From Abditibacterium sp. (GTDB lineage: Bacteria > Armatimonadota > Abditibacteriia > Abditibacteriales > Abditibacteriaceae): a DNA stretch of 64,000 nt. Shown piece by piece: positions 1,922 to 62,791 of the stretch (the stretch's first letter is position 1; every line of letters starts with the position of its first letter). The notes under the pieces were generated by a model, which ran no database searches, had not been told where the DNA came from, and saw only the letters and a list, made by a program, of their open reading frames with translations. The position numbers and the translations under genes were made by a program. Where the stretch lies: the NCBI GenBank assembly GCA_965199495.1, contig CBDASK010000003.1, positions 2,816,001 to 2,880,000 on the forward strand. The letters run 5' to 3'.

Positions 1922-3493
1922 TTATCCATTGGTATGCAGCCGTTGTTCTTCCAAATCCAGATCGTTCTGAATGCGCCGCACAGCGTCCTCGTGCAATGCG
2001 CCGCGTTTGCGCAACTGTGCCAATTCGCGCCGTTGAACGTGCAATAGTTCCAGCGCGACCTGTTTCTTATTGAGAAATTCGCCGCTTTCGTCCGCCTCAG
2101 AATCCAAATTACGCGCGCGATAACGATAATACTTTTGGAAATATTCCAACGCCGGAGCGGGCGCGCAATTTTCGGTTTGCAGTTGCTCGATGCGCGCGAG
2201 GGCCGCGTGCGCCAGTTCGCGGCGCGCGTTATTTTCTTCGCGCTCGGTTTCGCCGTCGCCTTTCAAATGCAACAGCCGAATGAGCGGCGGCAAGGTCAAT
2301 CCCTGCACAACCAGCGTTGCCAAAATCGCGAAAAACGTGATGAAAATAATCAAGTTGCGCTGCGGAAACGGTTCGCCCGACGTTAAAACGAACGGTAACG
2401 CCAACGCGCCCGCCAGCGAAATCGCGCCGCGCATGCCCGTCCATGCGACAACTGCAATTGGTTTCCACGACGAAAATGGATCGTCGTTTGGAGGGTGAAA
2501 CCCCAGAACGTGCGATGCAAAAGCCGTGGCAAACGACCAAACGACGCGCGTCGCGATGAAAGTTAGCGCGATAATCGCGGCATAAATCGTGGCTTGTGTC
2601 AGCGAAATATCGCCCAGACCGCCGATGATGCGGCGCAATTGCAAACCGACCAACAAAAATAAAACGTTGTTGAACAAAAAATCGAGCATATCCCAAAACG
2701 CGATGGCCTGAAGTCGCGTTTCGCTCGAACTGGCGCGCGGCAGGCGGCGCGAAAAATAGAATCCGGCGGCCACAACGGCCAACACACCGGAAACGTGCAA
2801 CAGTTCATCGGCGACGATATAGGTCGCGAACGGTACAACCAAAACAATCGCGTTTTCGACCGCCGATTCGTTGATGCGTTTGATAAAAAAGACCGCGAGC
2901 AAACCCGCCAATAATCCAATGGCGATGCCGCCGCCGCTAATCAGCAGAAACTCCAATCCCGCGTGACTCAGCGAAAACGCGCCGGTCAGAGTAGCAGCCA
3001 CGGCGAGCTTGTAGACGACCAAACCGGTCGCGTCGTTGACCAGACTTTCGCCTTCGAGAATCGTCACGATGCGACGCGGCACGCCCAAACTTTGCGTAAT
3101 CGAAGTTGCCGCGACGGCATCGGTCGGCGAGACAATCGCGCCTAATGCCAGCGCCGCCGCCCACGGCAAACCCGGCACAATCGCGTGCGCGACCCAACCG
3201 ACGACGAGCGTGGTGAGAATCACCAGTCCCAGCGCGAGCAGTCCGATGGGTTGCAGGTTGCGCCCGAAGTCGCGCCACGAAGTCCGCACGCTGGCCACGA
3301 ACAAAAGCGGCGGCAAAAATAAAGTGAAAATGACTTCGGGCGCCAGTTCGATTTTTCCAAACGCGGGCACATAGGAAAGTCCCAATCCGCCGACCAGCAG
3401 TGGAATCGCGGGCGGCAAACGCAACGCGCCCGCCAATCGTACGATGACGATAACGGCGAGCAAAAGCGCGATACCAGTTTCAAGCGGAGACAT
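1922..3493 (-). CDS. CPA1-family Na+/H+ antiporter (NhaP/YjcE-like)
   Basis: Multi-TM protein with LPPLLF, SPTDAVA, GESLVNDATGLV, GMRGAISLA and LVVQGLTL motifs. Confidence 0.93.
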   Translation of the reverse strand: MSPLETGIALLLAVIVIVRLAGALRLPPAIPLLVGGLGLSYVPAFGKIELAPEVIFTLFLPPLLFVASVRTSWRDFGRNLQPIGLLALGLVILTTLVVGWVAHAIVPGLPWAAALALGAIVSPTDAVAATSITQSLGVPRRIVTILEGESLVNDATGLVVYKLAVAATLTGAFSLSHAGLEFLLISGGGIAIGLLAGLLAVFFIKRINESAVENAIVLVVPFATYIVADELLHVSGVLAVVAAGFYFSRRLPRASSSETRLQAIAFWDMLDFLFNNVLFLLVGLQLRRIIGGLGDISLTQATIYAAIIALTFIATRVVWSFATAFASHVLGFHPPNDDPFSSWKPIAVVAWTGMRGAISLAGALALPFVLTSGEPFPQRNLIIFITFFAILATLVVQGLTLPPLIRLLHLKGDGETEREENNARRELAHAALARIEQLQTENCAPAPALEYFQKYYRYRARNLDSEADESGEFLNKKQVALELLHVQRRELAQLRKRGALHEDAVRRIQNDLDLEEQRLHTNG

Positions 3494-3752
3494 AGGAGAT
3501 TAGGCGACGGATAATTTTACGCTCCGGTTCGCTGGCACAGAGTAAAATGAAGTGTAGACCAACACAATTTGGGCAAAATCTGACGCGATAAAGATTTAAA
3601 CATCCAATCTCCGCAAATTAGATGCGCCCAATTCGCCCACGCGAATCTCTCCGCACCAGATAATTCTGTCATTCCATATCAATTGGCCGTATCCATGTAA
3701 AAATAGGCATAGTAAACCCCGCGCAAACATCGCGCGCGTCGCAATCACTTCT

Positions 3753-6380
3753 ATGAAAATTCTTTTCACCCCAACGTTGTTGAGCCGTTGGCTGTGCGCC
3801 TTGATGTTGTGTTTTTCATGCAGTATCTCGGCGCACGCGGCCTCTTTACAAACTGCTTTTGGGCCGCAAGGTCTGGCCACGTTGCGTTATGGAAATCTGA
3901 CGCTGGCTGACACCAACGCGCACGAAGGTGACGCGTTTTCGCTTTACGACGTGGACGGCGCACCCGTGGCTCGTGCGTGGGACGCGGCTTCGCAAACTCT
4001 GACGTGGAAATACGGTTGGGGCCAAGTCGCCTGCAAATATACCCAGCGCGGCGACCAACTCAATCTGGATATTGCGATTGACAATCAGGGCAGCAAAACC
4101 ATCGCGGGTTTCAATATGTTTCCGCTCGCGTTGAGTTTTCCAGATTTCCCCAAAGGTTACGACGCGACAACGCCGCACGTCGGTTTTAATAATGATGGCC
4201 CGACGGTTCAGAGCGCCGACTTTGGCAGCGGCATCGTCACGGTGATTAATCGGGACGTGAAAAGTCCGTTGTGTGTTGGGCTAATTTCCAGCAATGATAC
4301 CGCGCAATCGTTTCGTTACAACGTTTATGTCGGCTCGGCGCACCTGTGGTATCAGCCGGGCAACTGGCCGACTTTTAATCGTCCCATCGCGCCGGGTGGA
4401 CACGATTTGTATCAAATTGCGCTGCGGTTTTCGCCGTCTGGCACCGACATCAGTTCCATCGGCGACGATGTTTATAAAAAATTCGCGCAGGCCCATCCAT
4501 CCGAGTTGAACTGGACGGATCGTCGGCCCATCGCGTCGTTGTTTCTATCGTCGGCCTCGGATAATCATCCGGCGTGTAACCCACGCGGTTGGTTCTATAA
4601 CGATGAAAGCGTTGACTGTTTCAACGCCACGGGCCGCGCGCGTTTGCGCCAGCGCGTGATGGATTTCGCCGACGATAGCATCGCCGAAATGAAAAGCGTA
4701 GGCGCGCAGGGCATGGTGACGTGGGACATCGAAGGCCAAGAATATCCGCACTCGACCAGCTATATCGGCGACCCGCGTTTGCTTCCAAGTTTGGCGCCCG
4801 AAATGGACGCCATTGCCGACGAGTATTTCGCCAAATTCCGCGCCGCCGGACTGCGCGTCGGCGTGTGCGTGCGGCCTCAACAGTTGGTCGTGGACAGCAG
4901 CCACGCCGAGCAAGTCTCAGTTGATGACATCGCGCAGCAGTTAATAAATAAGATTCAAACCGCCAAAACGCGTTGGGGCGCCACGCTGTTTTACGTGGAT
5001 TCCAACGGCGGCCCCTACGACCCGACCGACGCCGCGATTTTCCAGCAGGTCGCGCGCGCTCATCCCGACGTTCTGCTGATTCCCGAACACCAGAACGCCG
5101 CCTATTACGCTTTCACCGCGCCTTATAATCAGACCAACGAAAATTCACCTTTCACCTCCGATGAAGTGCGCGCGATTTATCCCAACGCCTTTAGCGTCGT
5201 CAAATTAATGGATGGCAGCGAGCAATTGCGTGGCGCCATCGTCGAGGCGGCGCGTCACGGCGATATTTTGATGTTCAACGGCTGGTATGACAGCGAAGAC
5301 GGCCAACAGGTGCGCGACGCCTATGCCGAAGCGACCAACGCGCTGTTGGTCACCACAACCAAAGATGTCATTGACGCAAACGACGGCAAAAACTCGTTAC
5401 GCGAGGCGATGATTTACGCCAACCAATCGGGGCGAGCGTGTCAGATTACTTTTGCCGACAACGTGCGCGGTACGATTAAGCTGGGCGGCGATTCGCTGCC
5501 CGCGCTGACGGGTGATTGCGAAATCGTCGGGCCGGGCGCCGCGTTTTTGACCCTTAACGCGAATAACCAAAGCGGCATTTTCCGCATCGAAAAAAGCGCG
5601 AATGTGACGCTTTTGGGTTTGACTCTCTGCGGCGGCAACGCGGGCGAATCGGTCGGTTATAACGGCGGTGCGATTTGTAGCGAAGGCGCTTTGACGCTGC
5701 GTTCGAGCGTTTTGCGCGATAATCACGGCAACGCGGGCGGCGCGATTTTCAATTTGGGCCGCGAGGTTTCCATCGAGCGTTGCACGTTTTCGGGCAACAT
5801 CGGCAATCACGTCGGCGGCGCGATTTTCAGCGCCAATGGCGCATTGGCGCTGTGGCAATGCACGCTGAGCGGCAATTCTGCGCCCGATGCGAGCGGCGGC
5901 GGCGGCGCGATTTGCGCCAACACGGTGGATTTGACTTTGGAATCCTGCACGCTGACCCGCAACAGCGGCTCGCGCAATCGCGGCGGCGTGTGGTTTCAGG
6001 GCGGCGTTTTGACGCTGCACAACTCGATCTTGGCGGGCAACGGCGCGCGCGATGTGGACATGTATGGCGGCTCGCTGACAACGAACGGCTATAATTTGGT
6101 CGGCGCGGCCTCGCCGACATGGAACTGGGTTTGGACGCGCACCGACAAACGCGGCGCCGTGGCTGGTCTCGACCAACTGCGTGATAACGGCGCTCAAACG
6201 CCGACTTGTGCGTTAATGCCCAATAGCGCCGCGCTGAATGCGGGCGATCCGAATATGAACGACGCCACCGACCAACGCGGCGCGCCGCGCGTGAGCGGCG
6301 GTCGCGCCGACATCGGCGCCTTTGAAGTTCAAGTTCCCGCGAGCGGGTCGTTTCAAACGTCGTCGGGTGGTAATTCGTAG
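3753..6380 (+). CDS. Secreted multidomain protein: putative glycoside-hydrolase-like barrel, CSLREA domain, beta-helix repeats and choice-of-anchor Q region
   Basis: Signal peptide ending AHA; WDIEGQ, FYVDSN and LIPEH segments; DGKNSLREAM; repeated GGAI; DQRGAPR..ADIGAFE. Confidence 0.75.
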   Translation: MKILFTPTLLSRWLCALMLCFSCSISAHAASLQTAFGPQGLATLRYGNLTLADTNAHEGDAFSLYDVDGAPVARAWDAASQTLTWKYGWGQVACKYTQRGDQLNLDIAIDNQGSKTIAGFNMFPLALSFPDFPKGYDATTPHVGFNNDGPTVQSADFGSGIVTVINRDVKSPLCVGLISSNDTAQSFRYNVYVGSAHLWYQPGNWPTFNRPIAPGGHDLYQIALRFSPSGTDISSIGDDVYKKFAQAHPSELNWTDRRPIASLFLSSASDNHPACNPRGWFYNDESVDCFNATGRARLRQRVMDFADDSIAEMKSVGAQGMVTWDIEGQEYPHSTSYIGDPRLLPSLAPEMDAIADEYFAKFRAAGLRVGVCVRPQQLVVDSSHAEQVSVDDIAQQLINKIQTAKTRWGATLFYVDSNGGPYDPTDAAIFQQVARAHPDVLLIPEHQNAAYYAFTAPYNQTNENSPFTSDEVRAIYPNAFSVVKLMDGSEQLRGAIVEAARHGDILMFNGWYDSEDGQQVRDAYAEATNALLVTTTKDVIDANDGKNSLREAMIYANQSGRACQITFADNVRGTIKLGGDSLPALTGDCEIVGPGAAFLTLNANNQSGIFRIEKSANVTLLGLTLCGGNAGESVGYNGGAICSEGALTLRSSVLRDNHGNAGGAIFNLGREVSIERCTFSGNIGNHVGGAIFSANGALALWQCTLSGNSAPDASGGGGAICANTVDLTLESCTLTRNSGSRNRGGVWFQGGVLTLHNSILAGNGARDVDMYGGSLTTNGYNLVGAASPTWNWVWTRTDKRGAVAGLDQLRDNGAQTPTCALMPNSAALNAGDPNMNDATDQRGAPRVSGGRADIGAFEVQVPASGSFQTSSGGNS

Positions 6381-6405
6381 GCTTTAGGTTGTGGCAATTG
6401 CTTGC

Positions 6406-6566
6406 TTTTCCCTCACCCGGCCTCGTGAAACTCGGCCACCCTCTCCCGGAGGGAGAAGGTTATTTGCGCACGCTATTTTCAAGATCTATCTTGGGAGTTG
6501 GAGGGCGAACTACCTTCTCCCTCCGGGAGAGGGTGGCCGAGTTTCACGAGGCCGGGTGAGGGAAAA
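6406..6566. repeat. REP-like inverted-repeat doublet, perfect 55-bp arms, 51-bp spacer
   Basis: 6406-6460 is the reverse complement of 6512-6566; CCCTCACCC..CTCTCCC..GGGAGA type; lies between convergent genes. Confidence 0.95.
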
Positions 6567-6585
6567 CCTATCGCTTTTCTCAGAC

Positions 6586-7605
6586 TTACACAGCCACGGC
6601 GAGCGCCGGTTCGAGCGTTTGGCAAACCTGCGCCGCCAACTCGAACGAACGCAAACGCGCCCGATGATCGTGAATCATCGCCGTCAGCATCAGTTCGTCG
6701 GCGCTGGTTTGTTCGATTAATCGTTGCAAACCGGCGCGCACCGTTGTGGGCGCGCCGACGAACGAAAACGCCAGCGAACGATCGATGTTCTGTTGCTCGT
6801 ATTCGCTCCACGGGCGTTCGCCGTTTTCGAGCGGCGCGGGCAATTGGCCGGGCGTGCCGCGTCGCAAATTGACGAATGCTTGCTCGACCGAAGTAAATAA
6901 GCGGCGCGCTTCTTCGTCCGAATCGGCGGCGAAAACGTTGGCGACGATCATCGCGTAGGGTTTGTCGAGGGTTTCGGACGGCTCAAAATTGTCGCGATAA
7001 ATCGAAAGCGCCTGCATCAACAAATCGGGCGCGAAGTGCGAGGCAAACGCGAACGGCAAACCCAATTGCGCGGCCAGACTCGCCGAATAAACGCTCGAAC
7101 CCAACAACCAAATCGGCACGTTTGTGCCTTCGCCCGGCACCGCGCGCACGCGTTGGCCCGGCGCGCTCGGCGCCAGATAACGCTGCAATTCCAAAACATC
7201 TTGCGGGAACGAATCGGCGCCTTTGCTACTGTCGCGGCGCAGGGCGCGCATCGTCAGTTGGTCGGTGCCGGGCGCGCGGCCCAAACCCAAATCAATACGA
7301 TTGGGATACAACGTTTCGAGCGTGCCGAAGTTCTCGGCGACGACCAAGGGCGCGTGATTGGGCAGCATCACGCCGCCCGAACCGACGCGAATCGTGTCGG
7401 TTCCGCTCGCGATATGTCCGATGACAACCGCCGTGGCTGAGGACGCGATGCCCGGCATATTGTGATGCTCGGCGACCCAAAAACGCTGGTAGCCCAATCG
7501 CTCGGCGTGTTGCGCGAGGTCGAGCGCATTATCCAAAGCCGTGCGCGCATCGGTGCCCGCAGCAATCGGCGCCAAATCGAGAATGGAATAGGGAATGTTC
7601 GTCAT
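6586..7605 (-). CDS. LLM-class flavin-dependent oxidoreductase (luciferase-like, YhbW type)
   Basis: [44 protein letters not shown] and FASHF motifs. Confidence 0.93.
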
Positions 7606-7684
7606 AATTGAAACTTTTTGTGTTACATATTAGACGAATGAATGGGGATTTGGCTCCGATTGTAGCAGCCACGCCGACAGGCGA

Positions 7685-8311
7685 TTATTTGGTGAGCGCG
7701 AACGCTTGTAATTCGCCGTGAATCGGACAATGATAAACCGGCTGTTTTTGGCCGCGCTTCCAGATAATGAGCCATTGTTTCGATTGACGAATGCCCGCGT
7801 AAACGTTGAAAGATGCGACTGTGGCCGCAATGTAAGAACCGGAAAAATATATTTTTCCGACGATATACCTGCGACAGGTAAAAGCGTATTCGCTATAGCT
7901 TCCTTCCGCGAATTCGTATTTCTCCTGCGGCCCCGTGCGTATTTGCAGATATGGCATAGTTGAGGACACAACGAGATTTGGATTAATATTTTTCTCGTTC
8001 GGGTTTTCGCTATCATAGACAGAGGTGCCGGAAATCTGTGGGAATTTAGCAGGTTCGATAAAGGGAAAGATATGCAACTTATCGGTATATATGTAACGAT
8101 AAAAATTAGTGACGCGCAGAGGACTCTGCCACAAGGAATGTTTGCCGAATCTTTTGCGATTGCTGACCGCGCTCATGGCCACAAAGTGTGGCGGCGAATC
8201 GCCTACGCTGCACAACTGGACGAATTGGAAGAACTGCCAAGTGACCCCTAGCACGAGGGTGATACCGCAAAATACCAAGATGGGTTCTTTAATCGGGCGC
8301 CGATTGTCCAT
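7685..8311 (-). CDS. Hypothetical membrane-anchored protein
   Basis: 208-aa ORF with an N-terminal TM segment; AT-richer than flanks; TG-A-TAAAAT 6 nt upstream of the ATG. Confidence 0.6.
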   Translation of the reverse strand: MDNRRPIKEPILVFCGITLVLGVTWQFFQFVQLCSVGDSPPHFVAMSAVSNRKRFGKHSLWQSPLRVTNFYRYIYTDKLHIFPFIEPAKFPQISGTSVYDSENPNEKNINPNLVVSSTMPYLQIRTGPQEKYEFAEGSYSEYAFTCRRYIVGKIYFSGSYIAATVASFNVYAGIRQSKQWLIIWKRGQKQPVYHCPIHGELQAFALTK

Positions 8312-8337
8312 GATGTGATTTTATCAAAATTCCGTTT

Positions 8338-8366
8338 GTAGAGACGCGATAGACCGGTGTTTCTAC
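8338..8366. repeat. Degenerate single GTAG-type REP
   Basis: GTAGAGACGCGATAGACCGGTGTTTCTAC resembles the arms of the elements at 33636, 47859 and 50039. Confidence 0.55.
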
Positions 8367-8373
8367 GGGAAAA

Positions 8374-11300
8374 CTAAACCGACTTCGCTTTGCCGACCGG
8401 AATTGCGACCGTGCCGCGACGCGCGAGTTTGTTCCAGCCCGCGCGGTGTCCGGCGATGGCCGTCCACAGCGATTTCCAGATCACGACGTAAAGCATCTGG
8501 CGATAGACGAAGCGTTGCCAGAACAGCCACCACAACAGGCTTTTGTCTTCCTTGTCCATGCGGATGGCGACGTAGGCGCCCGCCAACTCGACGGCGAAGA
8601 AGACAGCGTAGAAGAAGCCGACTTTTTCCAGAAAAAACGCGGTCTGCGGGTCGGGCGCCCACTGGCCGTGGCCGCTGCCGTTGAGATACCAACTGGCGAT
8701 GGTCGCAATCGCCGCGAAGACCAGTTGAATGTCAACGAGCGGCGCCAAAACCTGCAATACGAACTGGAAAACCGCGATTGTCGGCAGGGCCAGCCGCCCG
8801 AAAAAGCCGTGGCGGCCCATCGCGCGCCGGTGTTTGTGCAAGCATTGCAGCGTGCCATAAGCCCAGCGAAACCGTTGTTTGGACAGTGCGCTCATCGAAT
8901 CGGGCGCTTCGGTGAAGGCCAGCGCGCGCGTTTCGTTGCGCAGAATCCAGCCGTCGCGGCGCAATCGCCACGTCAAATCCATGTCTTCGGCCAAAGTGTC
9001 GGTGATATAGCCGCCGACGCTACGCACTGCGTCGCGTCGCCACGCGCCGATGGCGCCCGGCACGACGGTGATGGCGTTGACCAAACCGTAGGCGCGCCGA
9101 TCCAAATTCTGGCTGGTGATGTATTCGATAGCCTGCCAACGCGTCAAAACGTTGAGCCGATTGCCGACTTTGACGTTACCAGCCACGGCGCCGACTTTGG
9201 GGTCGGTGAAGTGGCGCACCAACAACCCAATCGCGTCGGGCGCGACCTGCGTATCGGCGTCGAAACCAACGGTGATTTCGCCTTTGGCGACTGTCAAAGC
9301 GTAGTTCAATGCCGCTGCTTTGCCGCCGTTTTGCTGGCGCATTAATCGAACGCGCGGTTCGTCGCCAAACGCGGTTTCGACGACGTGGCTGGTGTTATCT
9401 TTGGAGCCGTCGTCGACCACGATGATCTCGAAATTGGCATAATCGCTGCCCAAAACCGAGCGAATCGTGCTTTCGATGGTTTTCTCTTCGTTGTAACCGG
9501 CGATAATCACCGAAACGAGCGGCAGATAATTCGCATCGAAAACCAACTGTTTTTCGCGCTTACGCTCGATGGCGGCGAGGGGCAAAATAAAGGCGACGCG
9601 CGCGATGCCCAGCGCGATGGCGGCGATGAAACCGGCGACCAAAAGCCACTGCGCGCCGAAGAGCAAATCGAACATGGTGCGCTCGAAGCGCACTGAATCT
9701 AATTCGTTGGCCGAAACGACCGGCATCATGGCGGCGCGCCCGCCCGCCAACTGCGAAACCGGCACGAACTTAAATCCGCGCTGTTTCAATTCGGGAATAA
9801 TCGTCTTCAAAATTTCCAGCGTGCGCGCGCGGTCGCCGCCCGCGTCGTGCAGCAAAATGATATTACCTTTGACGCTATTGGTGTCTTTCAATTTGAGGTT
9901 ATCGGCGTCTTTCAGGATGTCGCGAATCATCTCTTGCGGCGTGCGCGGCGACTGCGAGCCGTCGGGCGCGACGTTAATCGGGTTCCAATCCTGCGGGTCA
10001 ATGAACTCGCCGATGGTGATGTAACCCAAACGCGCGGCCTCGGTGACCGGCTCGACTTGTTCGGCGGTTTCGGGTTCGGCGTCGGCGTTGTAGGGCGGGC
10101 GAAACATCCGCGTCGAATGGCCGGTGATGCCTTCGATGGCGCTCTGCGTCGCGTTGATTTCGAGCTTGGCGCGGCGCGGCGAAACCAACGCGATGTTGGG
10201 ATGCGTGAAGGTGTGGTTGCCCAAATCGTGGCCTTCGTCGTAGATGCGGCGCACCAAATTCGGATATTTTTCGACGTTATCGCCAACCAGAAAAAACGAG
10301 GCTTTGACGTTGTTACGCTTGAGAATATCCAAAATTTGCGGCGTCCATTGCGGGTCGGGGCCGTCGTCGAACGTCAAAGCCAGCTCGTTCTTAGAAAAGC
10401 CGCTGCGCTTAATCACGATGGGCGAGGGAAATTTTTGATACTCCTCGTCGGTGACGAGTTTTGTCGTCGAATCGAGTTCCAATTGGCGCTGTCCGGTTTG
10501 CGCCTGCTGCGCGACGGTGAGAATTTCGCCCTGCCCCGTGAAACTGACTTCGTAGGGAAACTTCACTGAATCCAAATCTCGGATGGAAAACCCGGTTTCG
10601 TCGCGGCGAAAAAAGCTCCACAGCGACGGGTCTTCGGCGCCCAGATACCACAACGCGTCGCCGCGCAAATGGGCGCGTTTGGCGAGTTGCCACTGGTTGT
10701 AGGCGCTGGCCGCATCGAGCATCCAGACTTCATGATCGTGGCCGTTTTCGTCCTGATATTCGTAGGTCGCGTTGAGCGATTGCGGGTCGAAATCTACCGC
10801 CTGTTGCGGCGTTTCGTCTTTGCCCGCGTCGTCCTGCGCCTTGAAAAGCGCCTCTTCGTAGGTCAGCGAATCCGCCTGGGATTTGCTGTTGCGCGTCCAA
10901 TCGTAGGCGTAGTTGCCCACGCCCAAAACCAACTTTTGCGGTTCAACGACCGCGCTGGCGCGCCTGACCAAAGCCGCGCCCCAATCGAAGCTGGCAATTG
11001 GGCCGGGCGCGTCAACTTCGGCGTGTTGGTCGTAGGCCATCAACACCGCGAAATCGCACGGCGCCGCCATTTGCTTCATCTGCGCATCGGATAGACCGGC
11101 TTCCAAATCGGTCGAAAACGACAGACCCGACGCGTGCAAATTCTGGCTGAGCGCGCCCATAAACGCGATCAATTTCGGTTGGTCGGCGGGCACCAAACTC
11201 TCGAAGTCGAGGTTGAGACCCTGAAATTTATTTTGCGTCAACCATTGTTTCAGCGCGCCGATAAGTTTGGTTTGCGCGGCGGGCGAAGCGAGCAATTGAT

Positions 11301-11889: not shown

Positions 11890-12010
11890 AAAAATAAACC
11901 TTGGGGAATCGTTCATTTTTACGCTTGATATTCGCTCGCGCGCGTGAGAAGTTGCTTAACCAAAGCGCGCGTTTTAACAATAGTTTGCAGGATGCGTTTT
12001 TCGATGAAAT

Positions 12011-13015: not shown

Positions 13016-13065
13016 CCATCAAGTATTATCCGAAACCAAATCGGCGTTTGCTAAACTGCCCCGCC

Positions 13066-50038: not shown

Positions 50039-50132
50039 CGTAGAGACGCCGATTTATCGCGTCTAAAACGTTGGCTTGCTTCAACGAAACGTTAATCCAA
50101 CGTTTTAGACGCGATAAATCGGCGTCTCTACG
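50039..50132. repeat. GTAG-type REP doublet, perfect 36-bp arms, 22-bp spacer
   Basis: 50039-50074 versus 50097-50132; the leuB TAG stop is supplied by the GTAG of the element. Confidence 0.93.
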
Positions 50133-51183: not shown

Positions 51184-51357
51184 ATTTTAAACTCGCCGCA
51201 CGTTTTATCGTCAGCGAAAGAGAGGGTTTAACCCAAGCCAAGCGAATTCGCAATTGACGTTCCTTGGCACAGGGCTTGCCTCTCAGGGGAAATAGACGCA
51301 GCAAATCGCGTTCAAATTTCAAAGTAAAAGTCACTTGTTTTCAAAGGAGGAAACATC

Positions 51358-51621: not shown

Positions 51622-51632
51622 CTTCAAAACTA

Positions 51633-51670
51633 AAAAAAGCCGCGTTCTTGCAAAAGATCGCGGCTTTTTC
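51633..51670 (+). terminator. Intrinsic terminator
   Basis: AAAAAGCCGCG..CGCGGCTTTTT just after the stop. Confidence 0.8.
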
Positions 51671-51772
51671 GCGTCTGCCATGTGCGATTTTCGGTTGCGA
51701 AATTAGTTAGCGTTTGCGGTAAAGCGGCAAAGATTCTAAAATTGAATTCACTTTTCCGATTTTCTTTTTAAT

Positions 51773-53821: not shown

Positions 53822-53834
53822 AGCAATTCATCGT

Positions 53835-54704: not shown

Positions 54705-54730
54705 GTTGGCGATAATTTTAACCGATTACA

Positions 54731-54774
54731 AAACAAAACGCGCACTTTTCCTATGAGAAGCGCGCGTTTTGTTT
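54731..54774 (-). terminator. Terminator after infB
   Basis: AAACAAAACGCGC..GCGCGTTTTGTTT hairpin 10 nt past the stop. Confidence 0.75.
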
Positions 54775-54783
54775 GGCTTCCAT

Positions 54784-57477
54784 TTAATCGTCCAAGGTGC
54801 GCTTGAGGCGCTTCATGGTGAAGCACTTCAAGCGGTCGCCTTCCTGAAAGCCGTTGAAGCCGTTGGTCGAAATGCCGCACTCTTGTCCGGCGGCCATCTC
54901 TTTGACTTCTTCCTTGAAGTGACGCAGCGAATCTACCTTGCCCTCGAACAACTGTTTCTGGTTGCGAAAGACGCGCATGATGTCGCCTTTGACGAACTTG
55001 CCTTCGAGAACCATGCAACCGGCGATGCCGCCCGCTTTGGTGGATTTGAACAACTGGCGAACTTCGGCTTCGCCCATGTAAATCTCCTCGAACATCGGCT
55101 TGAGCAGACCTTCGAGCGCCGCTTTTACGTCGTCAATGGCATCGTAAATGACATCGTAGTTGCGAATTTCGACTTTCTCGCGGTCGGCCAACTGCTTGGC
55201 CATCGGCGTGGCTCCGACGGCGAAGGCGATGATAAACGCCTCGGAAGCCGCCGCCAAATTGACATCGTTTTCCGTGACTTGGCCGACGCCGCGCGAGACG
55301 AATCTCACGCGAACTTCCTTGTGCGCCAAATCGTTGAGCGACGAGGCCAACGCCTCGACCGAACCCTGACCGTCGGCTTTGACGATCAAGTTCAAATCTT
55401 TCACGTCGCCTGCCTTGATTTTGTCGTACAAGTCGGCCATCGTGCGCATCGTCGCGGCGCCGCGCCCTTCGCGCGCCTGCGCCTCGAACGCCTCGGCGGC
55501 CTCGCGCGCTTCCTGCGGCGTTTCGTAGGCTTGCAACGAATCGGACGCGGAAGGCACGCCGTTCAGACCGGTGATGAAAACCGGAGTTTTCGGCCCGGCC
55601 TGATCCAAGGGTTCGCCCTTGTAATCGAGCATCTGGCGCACGCGACCATAGACTTCGCCGATTTGAATATCGTCGCCAATTTCCAAGTTGCCGCGATGCA
55701 GCAGCACAGTAGCCACGGCGCCCAAGTTTTGGTCTTGACGCGCCTCGATAACCGTGCCCGTCGCGTAACCTTCGGGGTTGGCCTTGAGTTCCTGAATTTC
55801 GGTGACCAGCAAAACGATGTCGAGCAAGTCGCTGACGCCCGCGCCGGTTTTGGCCGAAACCGGCACCACAACCGTATCGCCGCCGTAAGATTCCGGCACC
55901 AAACCGGCTTCGGCCAGTTGGCCGTAGATGCGGTCGGGATCGGAATCGGGCAAGTCGGTTTTGTTGAGCGCCACGATAATCGGCAGTTTGGCCGCGCGCG
56001 CGTGGTCAATCGCCTCGCGCGTCTGCGGCATCACGCCGTCGTTGGCGGCGACCACCAAAATCGCGATGTCGGTGACATGCGCACCGCGCGCCCTCATGCG
56101 CGTGAACGCCGCGTGACCGGGCGTGTCCAAAAACACCAAACGCTGACCGTTATGTTCGGTCTCGTAGGCGCCGATGCGTTGCGTAATGCCGCCCGCTTCG
56201 CCCGCCTGCACCTTGCCGCCGCGAATGCGGTCGAGCAAGCTGGTTTTGCCGTGGTCAACGTGGCCCATAACAACGACGACTGGCGGCACTTCGATCAAAT
56301 CGTCTTCGTTCTCGGCCTCGGAAACGTTGACTTCGGAGCGCGCCTCTTTGCGCTCGATGGTGAAGCCGAAACTCGTGGCGAGGTTGGAAGCCACGTCCAT
56401 TTCGAGCGGCGCGTTGGCCGCGCGCATCACGCCCATTTTAAAGAGAGCCTTGATGACTTCGTTGACCGGCTTGCGCATCTTCTTGGCGAGGTCGGCGACG
56501 GTAATTTCTCCCGTGACAACAATCGTCATATCGGCATCGGTCAACGGAAGTTCCTCGACGACTTCCTCGAAACGCTCTAAGCCGTGATTGGAACGACGAC
56601 CGCGATATTTGCCTTTGCGCGCATTGCGACGGTCGCGTCCGCCCGTGGCGAACGGGCTGTTATCCAAATTTTGCGGTTTGGGCGCGCCGCTCGCGGTCGT
56701 GCCACCCGCGCCGGGCACCGGCTGAGCCGGGCCGCGTCCGCCTTGGGCGCGACCGCCGCCGCCACGCGCCGGGCCACGCGCGCCGCCCGCACCTGCGGGC
56801 CGATTGCCCTGATAACCGCCGCCGGGCCGACCGCCGCCGGGCGCGCCGGGGCCGCGTCCGCCGCCACGCGGACGAGAATCGCCGCTATTATCCGAAGGCG
56901 GAGGCGCTGTGCGTCCGGTTGGAACCGGCGCCGCGCCCGCGCCGCCACGCGGCGGCATCGCGCGACCTTGCGGCGTGCCCTGCGGACGAGGCGCGCGACC
57001 ATCGTTGCCACGTCCATCGCTCGAACGAGGCGCGCGGCCATCGTTGCCGCGACCATCACTCGAACGCGGCGCGCGACCGTCGGCGCCACGACCATCGCTC
57101 GAACGCCCGTCGTTGGTGCGACCGGTAGGCGCGGTGCGTCCCGTGGGCGGAGCCACGGGCGCGACAGGCGCCGCCGCGACTGCCGCTGCGGGCGCGGGCA
57201 TCGAAGCCATCGAGTTGGCCGTGGCGGGCGCCGCAACCGGAGCGCTCGCGGGCGCCGTGGCTGCTGTTGGCGCGGGCGCGGATTGGGCGGTGGGCGTTTT
57301 GACGACGCCATCGGTTTTGTTGGCGACCAACTGGCGCAGCGACGCCGCCGCCATCGGTTCGACCGACGACGACGCGACTTTATTGGCCACGCCGATGGAG
57401 TTCAGCATGTCCAAAACTTCGCGCGGGCTAACCGACAATTCTTTCGCTATATCGTAAATTCTGACTTTAGTTGCCAT
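54784..57477 (-). CDS. infB: Translation initiation factor IF-2
   Basis: [38 protein letters not shown] and [11 protein letters not shown]. Confidence 0.98.
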
Positions 57478-57508
57478 GAGGCATCACGTTCCTTTTGTGA
57501 CTCAAGAG

Positions 57509-57808
57509 TTAATTCATGTGTTGGCTCTCCTGAGAGGTTATGTTTATCGAAATCGCGGTTTCGATTTGTTCTTTAATCGTCGCATCGAGCGGCGTTTTGA
57601 GTTTCAGCGCGCGCTCGAAAGCGCGTTTTTTCCAAGCGGTTTTGGCGCAACCTAAATCGCGACACAGATAAGCGCCCCGTCCCAACGCCTTCAATTTTCC
57701 GGCATCGAGTTGGGGCGTTGCTCCGTCGCGGCTTGCAACGCGGAGCATTTCGCCGGGCGCTTTCACGCTGCGGCACGCGACGCAGGTGCGCTGGGGTTGG
57801 TGGGGCAT
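57509..57808 (-). CDS. ylxR: YlxR/DUF448 RNA-binding protein
   Basis: PQRTCVACR and GRGAYLC; lies between nusA and infB. Confidence 0.92.
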   Translation of the reverse strand: MPHQPQRTCVACRSVKAPGEMLRVASRDGATPQLDAGKLKALGRGAYLCRDLGCAKTAWKKRAFERALKLKTPLDATIKEQIETAISINITSQESQHMN

Positions 57809-57826
57809 TGCTGGGCTTACATCCCT

Positions 57827-57908
57827 TTTAGCGGGGCTGACGCCCTCTTCCAATCGGCGGTCTTTCGACGAACTTTGCTGATTGGAAGAGGGCGCCAGCC
57901 CCGCTAAA
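57827..57908. repeat. REP-like doublet, GCGGGGCTGAC..CTTCCAATC family
   Basis: Near-perfect arms of about 32 bp inside the nusA-ylxR intergenic region. Confidence 0.9.
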
Positions 57909-57914
57909 TTTCCA

Positions 57915-59258
57915 TTACTTCCCGTCCGAATCCATTCCGCCCATCAACTCGTCCATTGACATTTCGTCTTCGGGCGCCGTTTCCATTGCGGGCATCGCGG
58001 GCATTTCCGGCTCGGCCTGAACTGGAGCCACCGGCACATCAACGGGCGCGCTGTCCACCAGATGTCCGTCCGGTTCGATGGCGAACAGCGTATCCAAAGT
58101 CGTCTTCGATTCGCGCGTCGGTTCTTTGGCCGGAACCGCATTGCCGCGCACGTCGAACATCTTTTTGGCCTGTTCTTCGGCAAACTGTTTTTCCGTCCGA
58201 ATGTCAATGCGCCAGCCGGTCAGTTTGGCCGCCAGACGCACGTTTTGGCCTTGCTTTCCGATCGCCAGCGATTGTTGGTCTTCCGAAACAATCACCGTCG
58301 CCGTGCCGGTTTTGCCTTCTTCGATAATCGAGACTTTGATGACCTGCGCGGGCGACAAAGCGTTGGTAATGAACTCGATGGGATCGTCGCTCCAGCGCAC
58401 GATGTCCACCTTTTCGTTGCCCAACTCGCCGACGACTTTGGCGACGCGATTGCCGCGCGGCCCGACGCAAGCGCCGACCGGATCGACGTCGGGATTCTCG
58501 GCGGCGACCGCGATTTTCGAGCGTTGCCCGGCCTCGCGCGCCACGGCTTTGAGTTCGACGATTTTTTCCGCGATTTCGGGCACTTCGCGCGTGAACAGGT
58601 TGCGCAGCAAATCGGGATGCGAACGCGAAACCATGATCGAAGGGCCGCGATAACCCTGGCGCACATCAATGACGAAAACGTAATAACTCTCGCCAAAACG
58701 ATAGGTCTCGCCGTGCGCCTGTTCTTTGAACGGCAGAATCGCTTCGGCCTTGCCCAATTGCATCACGACATCGCCGCGCTCCAAACGCTGCACGATACCG
58801 CAAAACAATTCGCCCTGTTTATCGGAATATTCCGAGGCGACCTGATCGCGTTCGGCGTCGCGCAGTTTCTGCATCAAAACCTGCTTGGCCGTCAGCGCCG
58901 CCACCCGACCGAAACCGGCGGGCGTCACTTCGCGCTCGATGACTTCGCCCAAATTGATGTTCGGGTCTTGCTCGCGCGCCGATTTCCACGCGACTTCGGT
59001 GTTGGGGTTCATCTCTTTCTGCACCACTAATTTCTGCGCGAACACGCGAAAATCGTTGCGCTCGAAATCAGCAGCCACGCGCACGGTGCCCGAACTGCCA
59101 TAGGCGCGCTTGTAGGCCGAAACCAGAGCGCCCTCAATCGAGGAGACCAGAGTTTCGATGGGGATATTTTTTTCGTCGGAGACCAGACGCAGACTTTGCA
59201 GCATATCCGCGCGCTGTTCTTGATCGGTTTTTTTCGGAGTTTTCTTCGCCAGTGCCAT
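57915..59258 (-). CDS. nusA: Transcription termination/antitermination factor NusA
   Basis: FGRVAALTAKQ, SRSHP, AREAGQRSKIAV, PVGACVG and AIGKQGQNVRLAAKLTGW. Confidence 0.98.
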   Translation of the reverse strand: MALAKKTPKKTDQEQRADMLQSLRLVSDEKNIPIETLVSSIEGALVSAYKRAYGSSGTVRVAADFERNDFRVFAQKLVVQKEMNPNTEVAWKSAREQDPNINLGEVIEREVTPAGFGRVAALTAKQVLMQKLRDAERDQVASEYSDKQGELFCGIVQRLERGDVVMQLGKAEAILPFKEQAHGETYRFGESYYVFVIDVRQGYRGPSIMVSRSHPDLLRNLFTREVPEIAEKIVELKAVAREAGQRSKIAVAAENPDVDPVGACVGPRGNRVAKVVGELGNEKVDIVRWSDDPIEFITNALSPAQVIKVSIIEEGKTGTATVIVSEDQQSLAIGKQGQNVRLAAKLTGWRIDIRTEKQFAEEQAKKMFDVRGNAVPAKEPTRESKTTLDTLFAIEPDGHLVDSAPVDVPVAPVQAEPEMPAMPAMETAPEDEMSMDELMGGMDSDGK

Positions 59259-59327
59259 ATTCAGTTGTCCTTTATTTAATTGGATTTGAGCGTTTAACGC
59301 GCTCAAACGCCCCCATTTTGAAGCAAC

Positions 59328-59354
59328 AAAAAAGCGGACGCGTTGCGCCCACTT
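59328..59354 (-). promoter_or_regulatory. rimP/ylxS-leader-like attenuator hairpin upstream of nusA
   Basis: Minus strand AAGTGGGCGC-AAC-GCGTCCGCTT followed by a T-tract, about 70 nt before the nusA start. Confidence 0.6.
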
Positions 59355-59473
59355 GCTCCGCCGTTCTCGCGGAAACTTCGTGCTGTTAAATTCGGTAGCA
59401 ATAAGATTTTACTTCAAATTCATATTTTGGACAATTGACCGACGCACGAAACCGCGCGGCGTGCCGTTTTGGT

Positions 59474-59956
59474 TCATTTGTCATCACGATATAAAGCGAT
59501 AAATTCGCGCAAGCGACGTTCGGTTACGGGATGAAGTTTTGCCGCACGCTCTTCGATTCCCGACTTATGAAGATACGTCCCCGTATAATAAGCGGGCGAA
59601 GATAAATGTATCTGAGCCAAATAATGCGGTTCTCGATAGCTTTTGCGCAATCGAATCGCGTAGCCGCGAGGAATTGGAACGGAGCCACTAAAAGTGCCCA
59701 ATTCATCGGCTTCTCGCCCTCTTTTAAGAAGATAAAACTCATCCAACGTCGCTTTAAATTCATCAATGGGAATCGAAACAGATTTTCCACCATTAACCAA
59801 CTCTACGATTTTCGCCTCGCGCAAGTGCGCGCGTTCCTGCAAATCAAATTGAGTCGGCGTCGGATGCAACTGCTTCCATTTGACGCCGCCAAGCAACGCG
59901 CCTAATAAGAGAGGAAGCAAAACAAACGCGCCCCGATGAAGAAGTTGCTGTTTCAT
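59474..59956 (-). CDS. Hypothetical membrane-anchored protein
   Basis: 160 aa; N-terminal TM; ATGA overlap with the upstream gene; lower GC. Confidence 0.6.
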   Translation of the reverse strand: MKQQLLHRGAFVLLPLLLGALLGGVKWKQLHPTPTQFDLQERAHLREAKIVELVNGGKSVSIPIDEFKATLDEFYLLKRGREADELGTFSGSVPIPRGYAIRLRKSYREPHYLAQIHLSSPAYYTGTYLHKSGIEERAAKLHPVTERRLREFIALYRDDK

Positions 59957-60936
59957 TTCTTCTCCGCTTTCGGTTCCTCGTCCGGCGCCTTGGCAGGCGC
60001 AACTGGCGTCGTCTCGGCTTTTGGTTTCTCCGCCGGAATCACCGGTGGTTTGCCGGTGGGCACGCCGGGTTTGGGCAAAAATTTCTCGATGTCGGGCGGC
60101 GGTTTGGGCAAGGGAATATCGCCAATGGTCGCGGGTTCAGGAAACGATTCGACGGTTTTGGGCGTAGGCGGATTTTTCGGATCGGCGGCGTTGTTGACGG
60201 GGCCAGTCACGCGCCCGCCGTTGTCTACTTGCACGTTGCCGCTGTCTATGAATAGCAACAATTCGTTGGCGAAAAATTGGCGCTTTTCGGCGTTTCCAAA
60301 GCGCACATCGCCCAACAGGCGCGCGGCGTTTTTGGTTTCGTCGTAGATAATCTGATTGCAGGTTCCAACGCCATCGCCCTGCACGATACGAATGTGGCCG
60401 ACCAAAATCGCTTGGCGCGTATCGTAGTTCCAATCCAGACGGTCGCACGCGATGCGCACCGGCTGGCGCTTTTGCTCCGAACGCCGTTTGGCGGCGGCAT
60501 CGGGAGCCACGCCGTCGTTCTCGCCATAAGACGAAACCACGACATCGTCGGTGACCGAGAAAACTTTGGTTACAAAATTGGCGAACAGATTTTTGCCGCG
60601 AATGGTGGATTCGCGCGTTTCAATGCGCAAATTGTCGGTCGCCGTGGCTGTTTTGATCTCGCCATCCGTATTACCTTGACCATCGTCGCGAAAAGAGTTG
60701 GCTTTTTGCGCGTAGAGAATGAAATCTTCGCCCTTCTGCGTCGCCGTCACGTCGCCGGTATAAACGCCGATGCCTTTGGCGTCATTGAAGTTTGCTTGTA
60801 AAGCGCCAAATTCGACGGTGCCATCGGGTAGTGGCGCATTAGCTTCCGTCGCGGTCGGCGGCGCGGCGGGCGTTTGTTGCGCGCGTGCGGCGACGGAGGC
60901 GCAGAAAAGAGCGAGGGCGAGAATCGGAAGTTTCAT
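59953..60936 (-). CDS. LptA/OstA-like beta-jellyroll periplasmic protein
   Basis: Signal peptide ending ARA; GVYTGDV, IACDRLDWNY..AILVGHIRIVQ and CNQIIYD; Pro-rich tail. Confidence 0.75.
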   Translation of the reverse strand: MKLPILALALFCASVAARAQQTPAAPPTATEANAPLPDGTVEFGALQANFNDAKGIGVYTGDVTATQKGEDFILYAQKANSFRDDGQGNTDGEIKTATATDNLRIETRESTIRGKNLFANFVTKVFSVTDDVVVSSYGENDGVAPDAAAKRRSEQKRQPVRIACDRLDWNYDTRQAILVGHIRIVQGDGVGTCNQIIYDETKNAARLLGDVRFGNAEKRQFFANELLLFIDSGNVQVDNGGRVTGPVNNAADPKNPPTPKTVESFPEPATIGDIPLPKPPPDIEKFLPKPGVPTGKPPVIPAEKPKAETTPVAPAKAPDEEPKAEKK

Positions 60937-60947
60937 GGCGATTGGTG

Positions 60948-61041
60948 GCGATGGGAGCGGGGCTGACACACTCTTCCAATCTTGCATGCTTTGGAAGAAT
61001 CCGCGCTGATTGGAAGGGTGCGTCAGCCCCGCTCCCATCGC
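60948..61041. repeat. REP-like doublet, GCGGGGCTGAC..CTTCCAATC family
   Basis: 60948-60981 versus 61008-61041; 34-bp arms with 2 mismatches. Confidence 0.9.
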
Positions 61042-61066
61042 ACCCCACTTTTTCTTTGAGACAAAA

Positions 61067-62791
61067 TCACTCAGCCTTTTCGCTTTTCTCCTCGACCTTT
61101 TTATCAACTTTCTCCGCCAACGGCGGAAGCGACGGCTTTTCCCGCACGAACGGTTTCAATGCCGGCACCAGCGATGCAATCGGCGGCGGCGCTTTTGGCA
61201 GCGCGATATTGCCGGTATTCAGATTATCCGCGCCTGGAAAAACAACGGGCGGCGCGGGTTTAACCGTCGGATTTTTCGCGTTGGCGGCGGGCGAATCCAA
61301 GCCGCTACGAATCGTGATATTAGGCGCGCTCACCAAGCCTTTGTCCACGAAAACGGTGACTTCGTTGCCTACGAATTGCTGGCGTTTCGCGTTGCCAAAG
61401 CGCACGCTGCCGCGTAAATAAACGATATTTTTCGGCTCGTCGTAGATAATTGTGTCGCAGGTGCCGGAATTATCGGCTTGCACGATGCGCAGATTGCCAA
61501 CTAAAGTCGCTTGACGCGTGACGTAATTCCAATCCAAACGGTTGCACGCGATGCGCACCGGTTTGCGCGCGACGCTCGAACGAAAACCGCTCATGCCATC
61601 GCCTTTGTCGTAGGCCGAAATCACGACGTTGCCCGAAATCGAGAGCAATTTTTTGTTGAAATCGCCAAACAGATCGGCGCCGCGAATCGTCGAATTGCGC
61701 GTTGTCACTTTCAAATCGCCCTTGGCGCTCGCCTGACTTTTCGGCTCGCTATAAATCACATCGCTGGCCGAGAGCGAAAACTCTTTGCCGACTTCTTTAA
61801 TCGTGACGCCGCCATTCAAAACGCTGACGCCGTTGGCATCGGTATACGACGAACGCGCGGCGTTAATCACCACGTTGCCCGGCGTTTTGACCGAGGGCGC
61901 GGGGGCAGCCACGGCGGGCGGCGCAATCGGCGCTTGAACCAACAATGCGGCGGGCGCCGTGGCTGCTAACGCGAGGGCGGGCAACAAACGAGGGCGGAAC
62001 ATAGTATTAGGACGCGAATCAGACGAAAAAACGGTGGGCTTTACGCCGACATTTGATTTATCGGTGACAAAGGGTCGCGGCACTTGAACGACGCCCGGAA
62101 CGAAGATAAGTTCGACATCGCGCCCAAAATTGACCTGACGCGTGTTGATGTTGGCCGTCATCTGCGCGCCTCGCAAGACGCCGCCTTTGACGCGCACTTC
62201 GACCGGGCCGGGGCTTTGCAAATCGCCCTTTTCCCATTGGTAACTCAGGTTGGGCGCCGCGAATTCCATGTCGCGCAGATGCGCCTTCACGGAGCCGGGA
62301 ATTTCGACTAATTTTTTGAAATCGAGCCAACGGGCTTGTGGCGTCTCAAACGAAAAATTCTCCGGGCCGCTCGCGTGGACGCCGCCCACGGCATCGAGAT
62401 TTTTCGACAGATTAGAATAGCGCACGCGCGGCGCTGTCATCACAATCCACGGATTGCCGTCGCGAAACAAGACGGCTTTCGAGACTTTGAGCGCCAGCCA
62501 CGCATCGCCGTTGTCCACGACGCGCGCGCTGTCGGCGGCGACTTCCCAGTGTTTTTGGCCGTCGTCGCGCCGCACCAAAAACGATTTCAAACCCTCGATA
62601 ACGAGCGGCGACGACGTGTCGCCCGCGTTTTGCTCGGCGGGCGATTCGGTCGTGACCCAGTTCCACAAACTCACCGCGCCCCAACTCGCCAGTGCCAAAA
62701 CTACAACGCGGCCAATTCGGGAGCGCAGAAACACGCGTAGCGCCCCCGAAAGAGATTCGAGGGCGCTACGCAAAGTTTGGCGTGTCGGCAT
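61067..62791 (-). CDS. LptC-like plus LptA/OstA-like fusion protein
   Basis: TM anchor then DGQKHWEVAADSA (LptC-like); internal signal-peptide-like segment from Met at 62002; C-terminal half paralogous to 59953-60936. Confidence 0.72.
   Translation of the reverse strand: MPTRQTLRSALESLSGALRVFLRSRIGRVVVLALASWGAVSLWNWVTTESPAEQNAGDTSSPLVIEGLKSFLVRRDDGQKHWEVAADSARVVDNGDAWLALKVSKAVLFRDGNPWIVMTAPRVRYSNLSKNLDAVGGVHASGPENFSFETPQARWLDFKKLVEIPGSVKAHLRDMEFAAPNLSYQWEKGDLQSPGPVEVRVKGGVLRGAQMTANINTRQVNFGRDVELIFVPGVVQVPRPFVTDKSNVGVKPTVFSSDSRPNTMFRPRLLPALALAATAPAALLVQAPIAPPAVAAPAPSVKTPGNVVINAARSSYTDANGVSVLNGGVTIKEVGKEFSLSASDVIYSEPKSQASAKGDLKVTTRNSTIRGADLFGDFNKKLLSISGNVVISAYDKGDGMSGFRSSVARKPVRIACNRLDWNYVTRQATLVGNLRIVQADNSGTCDTIIYDEPKNIVYLRGSVRFGNAKRQQFVGNEVTVFVDKGLVSAPNITIRSGLDSPAANAKNPTVKPAPPVVFPGADNLNTGNIALPKAPPPIASLVPALKPFVREKPSLPPLAEKVDKKVEEKSEKAE

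Follow-up and report, generated by a model that had tools for sequence, protein, structure and literature searches.

What keeps one short word of DNA in place, again and again, along an otherwise ordinary stretch of bacterial chromosome? The stretch, hereafter the window, comprises 64,000 nucleotides of Abditibacterium sp. (GCA_965199495.1, contig CBDASK010000003.1, positions 2,816,001 to 2,880,000) and consists of housekeeping DNA, with trpE, rnhA, ruvC, accC, lpxA, leuB, infB and nusA. A sequence-only reading had picked out the 10-mer ATGCAGCCAC/GTGGCTGCAT by eye. All 13 copies that it listed were recovered in place, six on the plus and seven on the minus strand, where 0.16 are expected and none of 100 shuffles reached 13. 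The window is the richest of 73 64-kb tiles for ATGCAGCCAC (13 copies against a mean of 5.2), and the 4.72-Mb chromosome holds 386 copies, which rejects a repeat confined to the window. The 10-mer belongs to a real, clade-specific, highly iterated word: a non-palindromic variant of the kind represented by the cyanobacterial highly iterated palindrome (HIP1) and the DNA uptake sequence (DUS), with a spacing rule of its own.

A chromosome-wide word with a sharp core

The source genome (G000) consists of a chromosome contig, C3, which contains the window, and two small contigs, C1 and C2. Its family is borne out by the RuvC of the window, whose relatives carry the source names Abditibacterium sp. 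(74% identity), Abditibacteriaceae and Abditibacteriota; GTDB places the family in Armatimonadota. Genes are calls of our own hexamer gene finder, not a published annotation, and number 3,430 in G000. A mixture model defined the full motif as wGC-AGCCAC-G(G/C/T)CG, with ~3,700 sites on the chromosome. Fixation is 98–100% per position in AGCCAC, followed by G at 94%, one of G, C or T, C at 89% and G at 81%; before the core, C reaches 80%, G 58% and A or T 73%. The boundaries first drawn around the word were therefore wrong: the invariant part is AGCCAC with G-(G/C/T)-C-G behind it and a soft (A/T)GC in front, and ATGCAGCCAC makes up 349 of 3,680 matrix sites, about a tenth of the motif. The shorter 8-mer GCAGCCAC had been put at some 20 further copies in the window; it occurs 34 times there (2.0 expected), 21 of them besides the 13, and one copy placed at 61904 in fact lies at 61905.

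Neither base composition nor codon usage accounts for this abundance. Under a maximal-order Markov model, no other hexamer on the chromosome is as over-represented as AGCCAC (6,390 copies against 3,073), and CAGCCACG occurs 3,083 times against 234 expected at Markov order 3 or 1,434 at order 5. Within the called genes, CAGCCACGNCG has 1,954 copies against 47–60 after synonymous shuffling and 153–160 after dicodon resampling, 35-fold and 12-fold excesses, respectively; the 10-mer itself survives the same nulls (328 copies against 8–12 and 21–31). All six frames are enriched, sense and antisense equally, and the word leaves its mark on proteins: VAA, AVA and AAT rank second (z=13), third (z=11) and fifth (z=11) among over-used tripeptides. 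Although 91% of CAGCCACG copies are coding, at a density of 0.72/kb against 0.32/kb in intergenic DNA, genes and spacers are enriched alike, 13-fold each. The first impression of a genome-wide, strand-balanced, codon-overriding word was thus sound. Among the 13 window copies, nine are read D/N-A-A-T, two V-A-A and two are intergenic, as had been described in outline; the RCSH frame also proposed is absent from them.

The word is scarce in acquired DNA. It is near background on the small contigs (2 copies against 1.2 expected on C1, 6 against 2.5 on C2), and the largest gaps on the chromosome are low-GC islands, where it is sparse, and a CRISPR array. This motif-free array of 131 repeats (G000:C3:2766480-2775003) ends about 41 kb before the window. 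No word-dense phage appeared among the 66 loci longer than 8 kb that were listed, the highest reaching 0.48/kb with two query copies included. One-mismatch variants of the core show no excess in G000, and no strand-specific footprint in base composition surrounds the sites beyond that of gene context. Five copies sit downstream of the 16S gene and could not be placed within rRNA. There is a single 16S rRNA gene (G000:C3:1860971-1862487). What follows it seems protein-coding to the eye, and the rRNA genes may accordingly be unlinked.

Replichores are clear in this genome: dnaA lies at 2.03 Mb, T/A skew switches near 2.0 and 4.35 Mb, and 91% of the 225 copies of a separate polar octamer, GGGCAGGG, fall on one hand. 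Like the polar octamers called KOPS (FtsK-orienting polar sequences) or AIMS (architecture-imparting sequences), CAGCCACG is short, non-palindromic and chromosome-wide, yet it is not polar: its strand share by replichore is 51.6% (z=1.8). Because polarity is missing despite clear replichores, the word is not Chi, KOPS, or a primase or lagging-strand signal, and the initial dismissal of Chi and KOPS holds. The proposal of a drive by methylation at GCAGC does not: GCAGC is under-represented (11,703 copies against 13,006 expected), is not the invariant core, and no methyltransferase of PF01555 or PF02384, the families compared across genomes, tracks the motif; the C5 and D12 classes were covered by regular expression in G000 only.

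Copies exclude one another on the same strand

Pairs of sites on the same strand 30–500 bp apart number 138, against 290.8±11.1 when strand labels are permuted (lowest of 200 permutations, 260), while opposite-strand pairs number 444. For strong sites, the same-strand ratio of observed to expected pairs (O/E) is ~0.1 below 200 bp, 0.3 at 400–500 bp, 0.66 at 750–1,000 bp and 1 beyond 1.5 kb, and the exclusion is symmetric on both sides. On opposite strands O/E is ~1, apart from a 2–3-fold excess below 30 bp that lies mostly within genes; of 92 close pairs in G000, no more than 15 lie between genes. Weak sites around strong ones give 98 pairs upstream and 78 downstream within 500 bp, no clear asymmetry. 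A toy birth-death model with a two-sided reach of ~1 kb fits the spacing curve.

The exclusion tracks the DNA strand and not the gene. Across neighbouring genes of opposite orientation, at 30–600 bp, 9 same-strand pairs were seen where 26 were expected, against 37 where 27 were expected on opposite strands. Together with the equal sense and antisense enrichment, this rejects a cause at the level of RNA or protein. A second genome with the word, G011, repeats the rule (9/32 on the same and 35/36 on the opposite strand below 500 bp), and five of five control 8-mers of similar abundance lack it. Sites found in G000 or G011 only avoid the shared sites on the same strand (O/E 0.45–0.58 below 600 bp) and ignore them on the other (0.94–1.18).

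As a reference we analysed DUS in Neisseria (1,087 sites in 766 kb from 77 loci picked for holding an inverted pair, with two non-Neisseria loci dropped and clusters below 8 kb skipped). Here O/E at 100–500 bp is 0.69–0.78 on the same strand and 0.52–1.11 on the opposite one, a mild avoidance in both orientations. We found no report of strand-specific spacing of iterated words, or of iterated words in Abditibacteriaceae, HIP-like ones included, in the literature searched; surveys in supplements or subscription journals could list such words.

The word in the window

The copies in the window are as follows, with intergenic positions according to our own gene calls.

1076..62502, plus strand: 21 dispersed copies of CAGCCACG, starting at 1076, 2995, 4898, 6591, 7666, 9180, 11461, 13646, 19015, 20448, 29612, 32355, 34294, 37654, 40147, 47092, 51114, 53976, 59072, 61906 and 62495; nearest same-strand neighbours 589 bp
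502..63253, minus strand: 27 dispersed copies of CAGCCACG, starting (plus coordinates) at 502, 1653, 6158, 7432, 9384, 11361, 13220, 17333, 19490, 21273, 30293, 33279, 34187, 36629, 36959, 41298, 42120, 42968, 44048, 48821, 52308, 53530, 54609, 57256, 60643, 61958 and 63246; nearest same-strand neighbours 330 bp
13643..13652, plus strand: 10-mer sub-word within trpE, read D-A-A-T
17334..17343, minus strand: 10-mer sub-word near ruvC, intergenic
19491..19500, minus strand: 10-mer sub-word within an HtrA-type protease gene, read D-A-A-T
20445..20454, plus strand: 10-mer sub-word antisense within a thiol-disulfide oxidoreductase gene, read V-A-A-F
21935..21944, plus strand: 10-mer sub-word, variant with C next, within the short gene preceding accC, read D-A-A-T
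33280..33289, minus strand: 10-mer sub-word, intergenic
37651..37660, plus strand: 10-mer sub-word, read D-A-A-T
40144..40153, plus strand: 10-mer sub-word within a photolyase-family gene, read D-A-A-T
42969..42978, minus strand: 10-mer sub-word, read D-A-A-T
44928..44937, minus strand: 10-mer sub-word, variant with C next, read D-A-A-T
47089..47098, plus strand: 10-mer sub-word antisense within the fabZ-lpxA gene, read V-A-A-S
48822..48831, minus strand: 10-mer sub-word within a beta-N-acetylhexosaminidase gene, read N-A-A-T
54610..54619, minus strand: 10-mer sub-word, read N-A-A-T

FabZ and LpxA are apparently fused in one 504-aa reading frame (window 46283-47797, minus strand). The window also contains inverted doublets of the repetitive extragenic palindrome (REP) type that start with GTAGAGAC, at 33643-33740, 47872-47965 and 50040-50131, and a single half at 8338. 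This sub-family has about 160 copies genome-wide, and other parts of G000 contain a second family of repeats, with about 125 copies.

One clade carries the word

In a sample of 401 genomes from the phylum, CAGCCACGNCG exceeds its reversed control in three: G000 (2,180 copies), G011 (1,838) and G004 (739), with estimated completeness of 95%, 87% and 92%, respectively. The other 398 are at control level. An IF-2 tree of 26 of the 27 Abditibacteriaceae genomes in our family set (G003 missing) joins the three in a fully supported clade on a long stem, nested in the genus among motif-free congeners.

Between G000 and G011 the word is conserved: in 706 kb aligned at 85% identity, 367 of 487 sites (75%) retain the core, against 23–64% for eight control words. 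Copies differ from their orthologues by substitutions, often one or two synonymous changes, and not by insertions. Sites with at least three core changes are in excess among losses and gains (59 against 27 in matched windows), a pattern that recalls one-step templated overwriting by double illegitimate recombination over short patches (SPDIR; 10.1101/2023.11.22.568220). We set this mechanism aside: among three-way gains, most amount to one or two synonymous changes, and the tail could stem from variable positions.

G004 organizes its copies differently. Of 588 copies in 800 kb sampled, 342 (58%) belong to a 20-bp repeat between genes and are arranged mostly in inverted doublets ~30 bp apart; G000 itself has 45 matches to this repeat. 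Dispersed G004 copies reach half the density and become scarcer close to doublets (5/15, 9/17 and 15/22 up to 1 kb); total density is therefore alike in all three motif genomes, at 0.59–0.72 per kb. The G004 repeat (loci L309-L328 and L406-L425) also forms one tandem array with an 18-bp period (L318, ~15,390-15,550).

Other iterated words in the family

Other genera of the family carry words of a second form. RAGTACT has 2,747–4,547 copies per strand in six of the 27 genomes (G014, G018 and G032-G035), against 114–538 for the control, and is avoided throughout the genus of G000. These six genomes, from two other genera, share a GAGTACTC or AAGTACTT core with 12–14 bp of soft palindromic flanks at about one per kb (L426 and L427 of G035, L430 of G032, L428 of G014; genome-wide in G018, G033 and G034). 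The full palindromes, evenly spaced and HIP1-like at ~1/kb (e.g. TCGAGTACTCGA), vary by genome, being of the ATCGAGTACTCGAA type in G035, CGAGTACTCG in G032 and TGCAAGTACTTGCA in G014, as read from 25–44 kb samples of these genomes and G017. Genic copies occur in several frames (20 of 50 in G035 and 9 of 29 in G032, in protein-matched DNA covering about half the bases), and spacing is more even than Poisson in G035, G014 and G017, though not significantly so in G032. In G017 an intergenic hairpin repeat of 22 bp, in which two CGACCGTAC halves stand back to back, recurs at even intervals, about once every 1.4 kb (L429, L066, L017). No dispersed word was found in 40–100 kb of G002, G009, G010 and G012, or in small samples (19–35 kb) of G006, G013, G016, G031, G038, pooled G036+G037 and pooled G001/5/7/8.

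Separately, restriction-type palindromes are extremely avoided on the G000 chromosome: CGGCCG, CTCGAG, CCGCGG and TTCGAA stand at 1–2% of expectation, GTAC at 11% and CTAG at 4%. Such avoidance is strong across the genus and partly common to motif-free congeners.

Recombination, competence and candidate readers

The check for competence genes that the first reading had proposed gave ComEC, ComEA and DprA, all without internal stops in the motif clade. ComEC is present in 27 of 27 family genomes, and ComEA, DprA, MutS and MutL in all five genomes tested for each. A regular expression found 10 prepilin-like proteins. The ComP profile PF16732 matched none of five genomes, in a search where no control genome matched either.

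All 10 of the 10 motif-free congeners have an AddAB-like pair, a UvrD helicase with a PD-(D/E)XK partner; the three motif genomes lack it and possess one UvrD-family gene each. As the clade is nested in the tree, the loss was a single event. The pair is also absent from other genera, with or without words. RecQ-like genes are present; NurA was not found in G000 or G004, and RecD2 in none of the 27. A different nuclease-helicase, g3377 (1,421 aa; G000:C3:4111365-4115630, L043:7365-11630), fuses a PD-(D/E)XK nuclease to an SF1B (AAA_11/AAA_12) helicase. It has at least 379 homologues and is widespread elsewhere; within the genus, all 3 motif genomes have it and none of the 10 motif-free congeners does. 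We nonetheless rejected g3377 as the reader of the word: it is patchy, is broken in G011 (only residues 680–1421 were found, with a frameshift and a stop) and was not found in six of the seven other-genus genomes with words. MutL, alike in motif and motif-free genomes, was rejected too, as were the PF01555 and PF02384 methyltransferases, none of which tracks the word; g1090 is 85–86% identical in G004 and G011 but 72–79% in six motif-free congeners. Genes of the Y1 transposase family were present in all five genomes tested. Directly behind mutS in G000 lies an N6/N4 methyltransferase with a short partner gene, a putative restriction enzyme (G000:C3:2187698-2192266); in G011, too, a methyltransferase stands beside mutS.

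Which process reads the word

We tentatively favour, at somewhat less than even confidence, a self or recombination signal read on single strands, probably on incoming transforming DNA. Exclusion over ~1 kb per strand without polarity points to a process that sees one strand and saturates. Uptake of double-stranded DNA does not predict such exclusion; recombination does, on an imported single strand or at resected ends. We prefer transformation for two reasons: repair signals linked to forks are mostly polar, and dialects and hairpins like those of DUS occur in the family. The reader would see a single DNA strand at a time and the word would act over ~1 kb to either side, most likely on the strand delivered by ComEC in putative natural transformation; only one strand enters through ComEC, and it is exposed to exonucleases (PMC7811141). 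A sequence-specific factor may protect the word-bearing strand or load RecA, a Chi-like job in an AddAB-less lineage, and HIP1 is described as raising transformation in a partly Chi-like, AddAB-independent manner (10.1101/2024.09.10.611283). Word-bearing strands would then recombine more often, and point mutations that create the word would spread by molecular drive. A new copy would gain only where no same-strand copy lay within tract length, and each strand would fill independently to one site per ~2.5 kb. In the sister genera, a palindromic word would mark the two strands together.

Several observations weigh against this reading. Of 314 dispersed sites in 515 kb of alignment with G004, 100 retain the core, no better than controls, and the dispersed G004 sites show no same-strand exclusion among themselves. 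The toy model also fits a one-sided reach of 2–3 kb, so spacing alone cannot separate transformation from chromosomal repair. Competence genes also occur in motif-free genomes (ComEC in all 27). The loss of AddAB is one event on one branch. Among the other-genus genomes that lack both AddAB and RAGTACT enrichment (seven, G017 apart), no dispersed word appeared in samples of G013, G016, G031, G038 and pooled G036+G037 (19–28 kb each) or of G015 (6 kb), and PCC 7002 carries both HIP1 and addAB (10.1101/2024.09.10.611283); a rule that a genome without AddAB carries a word is rejected on those samples. Finally, no reader protein emerged from the candidates considered, namely g3377, NurA, RecD2, MutL, the PF01555/PF02384 methyltransferases and the ComP search.

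The same spacing could instead reflect chromosomal repair, with the word as a Chi-like stop or loading signal in break or gap repair through non-AddAB resection (RecJ/RecQ-type, or g3377). Selection would maintain it, and breaks with two ends would call for both orientations in equal measure. Like Chi, which serves RecBCD or AddAB, the word is short and non-palindromic, and any effect of it must depend on orientation; unlike Chi, it stands in genomes that lack AddAB/RecB-type helicase-nucleases, as all three motif genomes do. The orientation-specific reach, the loss of AddAB on the stem, the RecQ-like genes and the distribution of g3377 all suit such a signal. So does a parallel in cyanobacteria, where recBCD is typical of marine Prochlorococcus/Synechococcus (PMC5101192), the group without HIP1 (PMC4390886 Table 2). 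The link between recBCD and HIP1 is not drawn in those passages of either paper, and PCC 7002 with its addAB is a counter-example; a term search of PMC13756078 gave no mention of recB, RecBCD or AddAB. We consider repair unlikely, however, given that the word has no replichore skew, unlike Chi, which is strand-biased according to PMC5861425, that weak sites show no clear asymmetry around strong ones, and that g3377 is broken in G011 and missing from most of the other-genus word genomes. A ratchet of the type proposed by Elhai, in which one-strand methylation or a nick at AGCCAC directs mismatch repair within ~1 kb and new sites fix only far from same-strand ones, anticipates the spacing: in that model sites saturate at close to one per kb, with none gained within ~1 kb (PMC4390886 section 3.4), and for a non-palindromic site the exclusion would be strand-specific as well as symmetric and would lack replichore skew. 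Both MutS and MutL are present, and the core is sharp. Yet the lower divergence that a methyl-directed mismatch-repair signal should leave near sites is not seen. Divergence from G011 at four-fold sites is flat (0.26–0.27) from 15 bp to 2 kb from the nearest site, with no trend in G004; MutL is alike with and without the word, no PF01555/PF02384 methyltransferase tracks it, and soft flanks would fit a binding protein better than a methylase. We regard the ratchet as improbable.

Two further accounts are, in our estimate, quite improbable. In one, the word is a classic uptake sequence read on double-stranded DNA at the pilus, like DUS or the uptake signal sequence (USS) of Pasteurellaceae. Size, copy number, strand balance, scarcity in acquired DNA, six-frame use with peptide enrichment as in DUS/USS (PMC2817400), family-level dialects as in Neisseriaceae (PMC3630211) and the hairpin doublets of G004 and G017 all resemble such a system, and the likeness in general kind noted at the outset stands. 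Classic double-stranded uptake is weakened by the strand-specific spacing, since DUS spacing in Neisseria is blind to orientation, and by the lack of an intergenic terminator bias in G000, where few close pairs are intergenic; nor are one-mismatch core variants in excess. The ComP search gave no match, in control genomes either. In the other account the word forms the core of a hairpin element like REP and is the target of that element's single-strand enzyme (HUH type, as in REP-associated tyrosine transposases, RAYT) or of a chromosome-structure protein; dispersed copies would be derived or compensating. The intergenic repeat of G004, the thinning of dispersed copies near its doublets, the repeat matches in G000, the Y1 transposase-family genes and the excess of sites with at least three core differences fit this view. 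The extragenic hairpin habit of REP elements is seen in 58% of G004 copies, but in G000 copies are overwhelmingly coding and orthologues differ by substitution; the repeat does not flank the nine Y1 loci checked, one single copy apart, and a structural protein gives no reason for strand-specific exclusion.

Relation to known words and significance

HIP1 and the alternative HIP words share much with the word of G000. As described in PMC4390886, PMC5861425 and PMC13756078, they reach hundreds to thousands of copies in each Mb, genic and intergenic alike, multiply through substitution, are conserved, lie regularly near one per kb, have lineage variants and have an open function linked to transformation. 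Substitution, conservation and spacing of this sort hold for the G000 word, its conservation against G011 and not against G004. Unlike HIP1, the word is non-palindromic in all three genomes of its clade, pairs a sharp hexamer with soft flanks, and yielded no cognate methyltransferase among the classes checked. The palindromes of G014, G018 and G032-G035 resemble HIP words outside cyanobacteria. To DUS of Neisseriaceae, with its receptor ComP and eight dialects (PMC3630211), and to USS (PMC7811141), the likeness lies in a non-palindromic, strand-balanced, six-frame, peptide-biasing word, scarce in acquired DNA, with family dialects and competence genes. Sequence and phylum are unrelated, G000 has no intergenic or terminator bias, and same-strand-only exclusion, present in G000, is absent from DUS in the Neisseria control.

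Possibly, though we think it doubtful, these words make up a third kind of genome-wide self signal, for which a stand-in for RecBCD/AddAB-Chi would serve as reader, acting on single strands after uptake or resection. Abditibacteriaceae would then hold a one-strand form (AGCCACG) and two-strand palindromic forms (GAGTACTC and AAGTACTT), and cyanobacterial HIP1 would be the palindromic case of the same logic. Codon-overriding, hyper-abundant words have been documented mainly in Neisseriaceae, Pasteurellaceae and cyanobacteria, and the function of HIP1 is still open; Abditibacteriaceae, itself an unstudied family, has several of them. A non-palindromic word shows what a palindrome such as HIP1 hides, namely that the strands are filled independently, with an exclusion zone of ~1 kb. 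This per-strand exclusion limits the mechanism to one-strand action and sets it apart from ComP-type uptake, and the comparison of same- and opposite-strand pairs offers a cheap diagnostic for other iterated words. If the single-strand reading is right, the reader could be found by gene profiling within this one family, whose genomes include some with and some without words and at least four dialects, and the thirty-year-old question of HIP1 would become directly testable.

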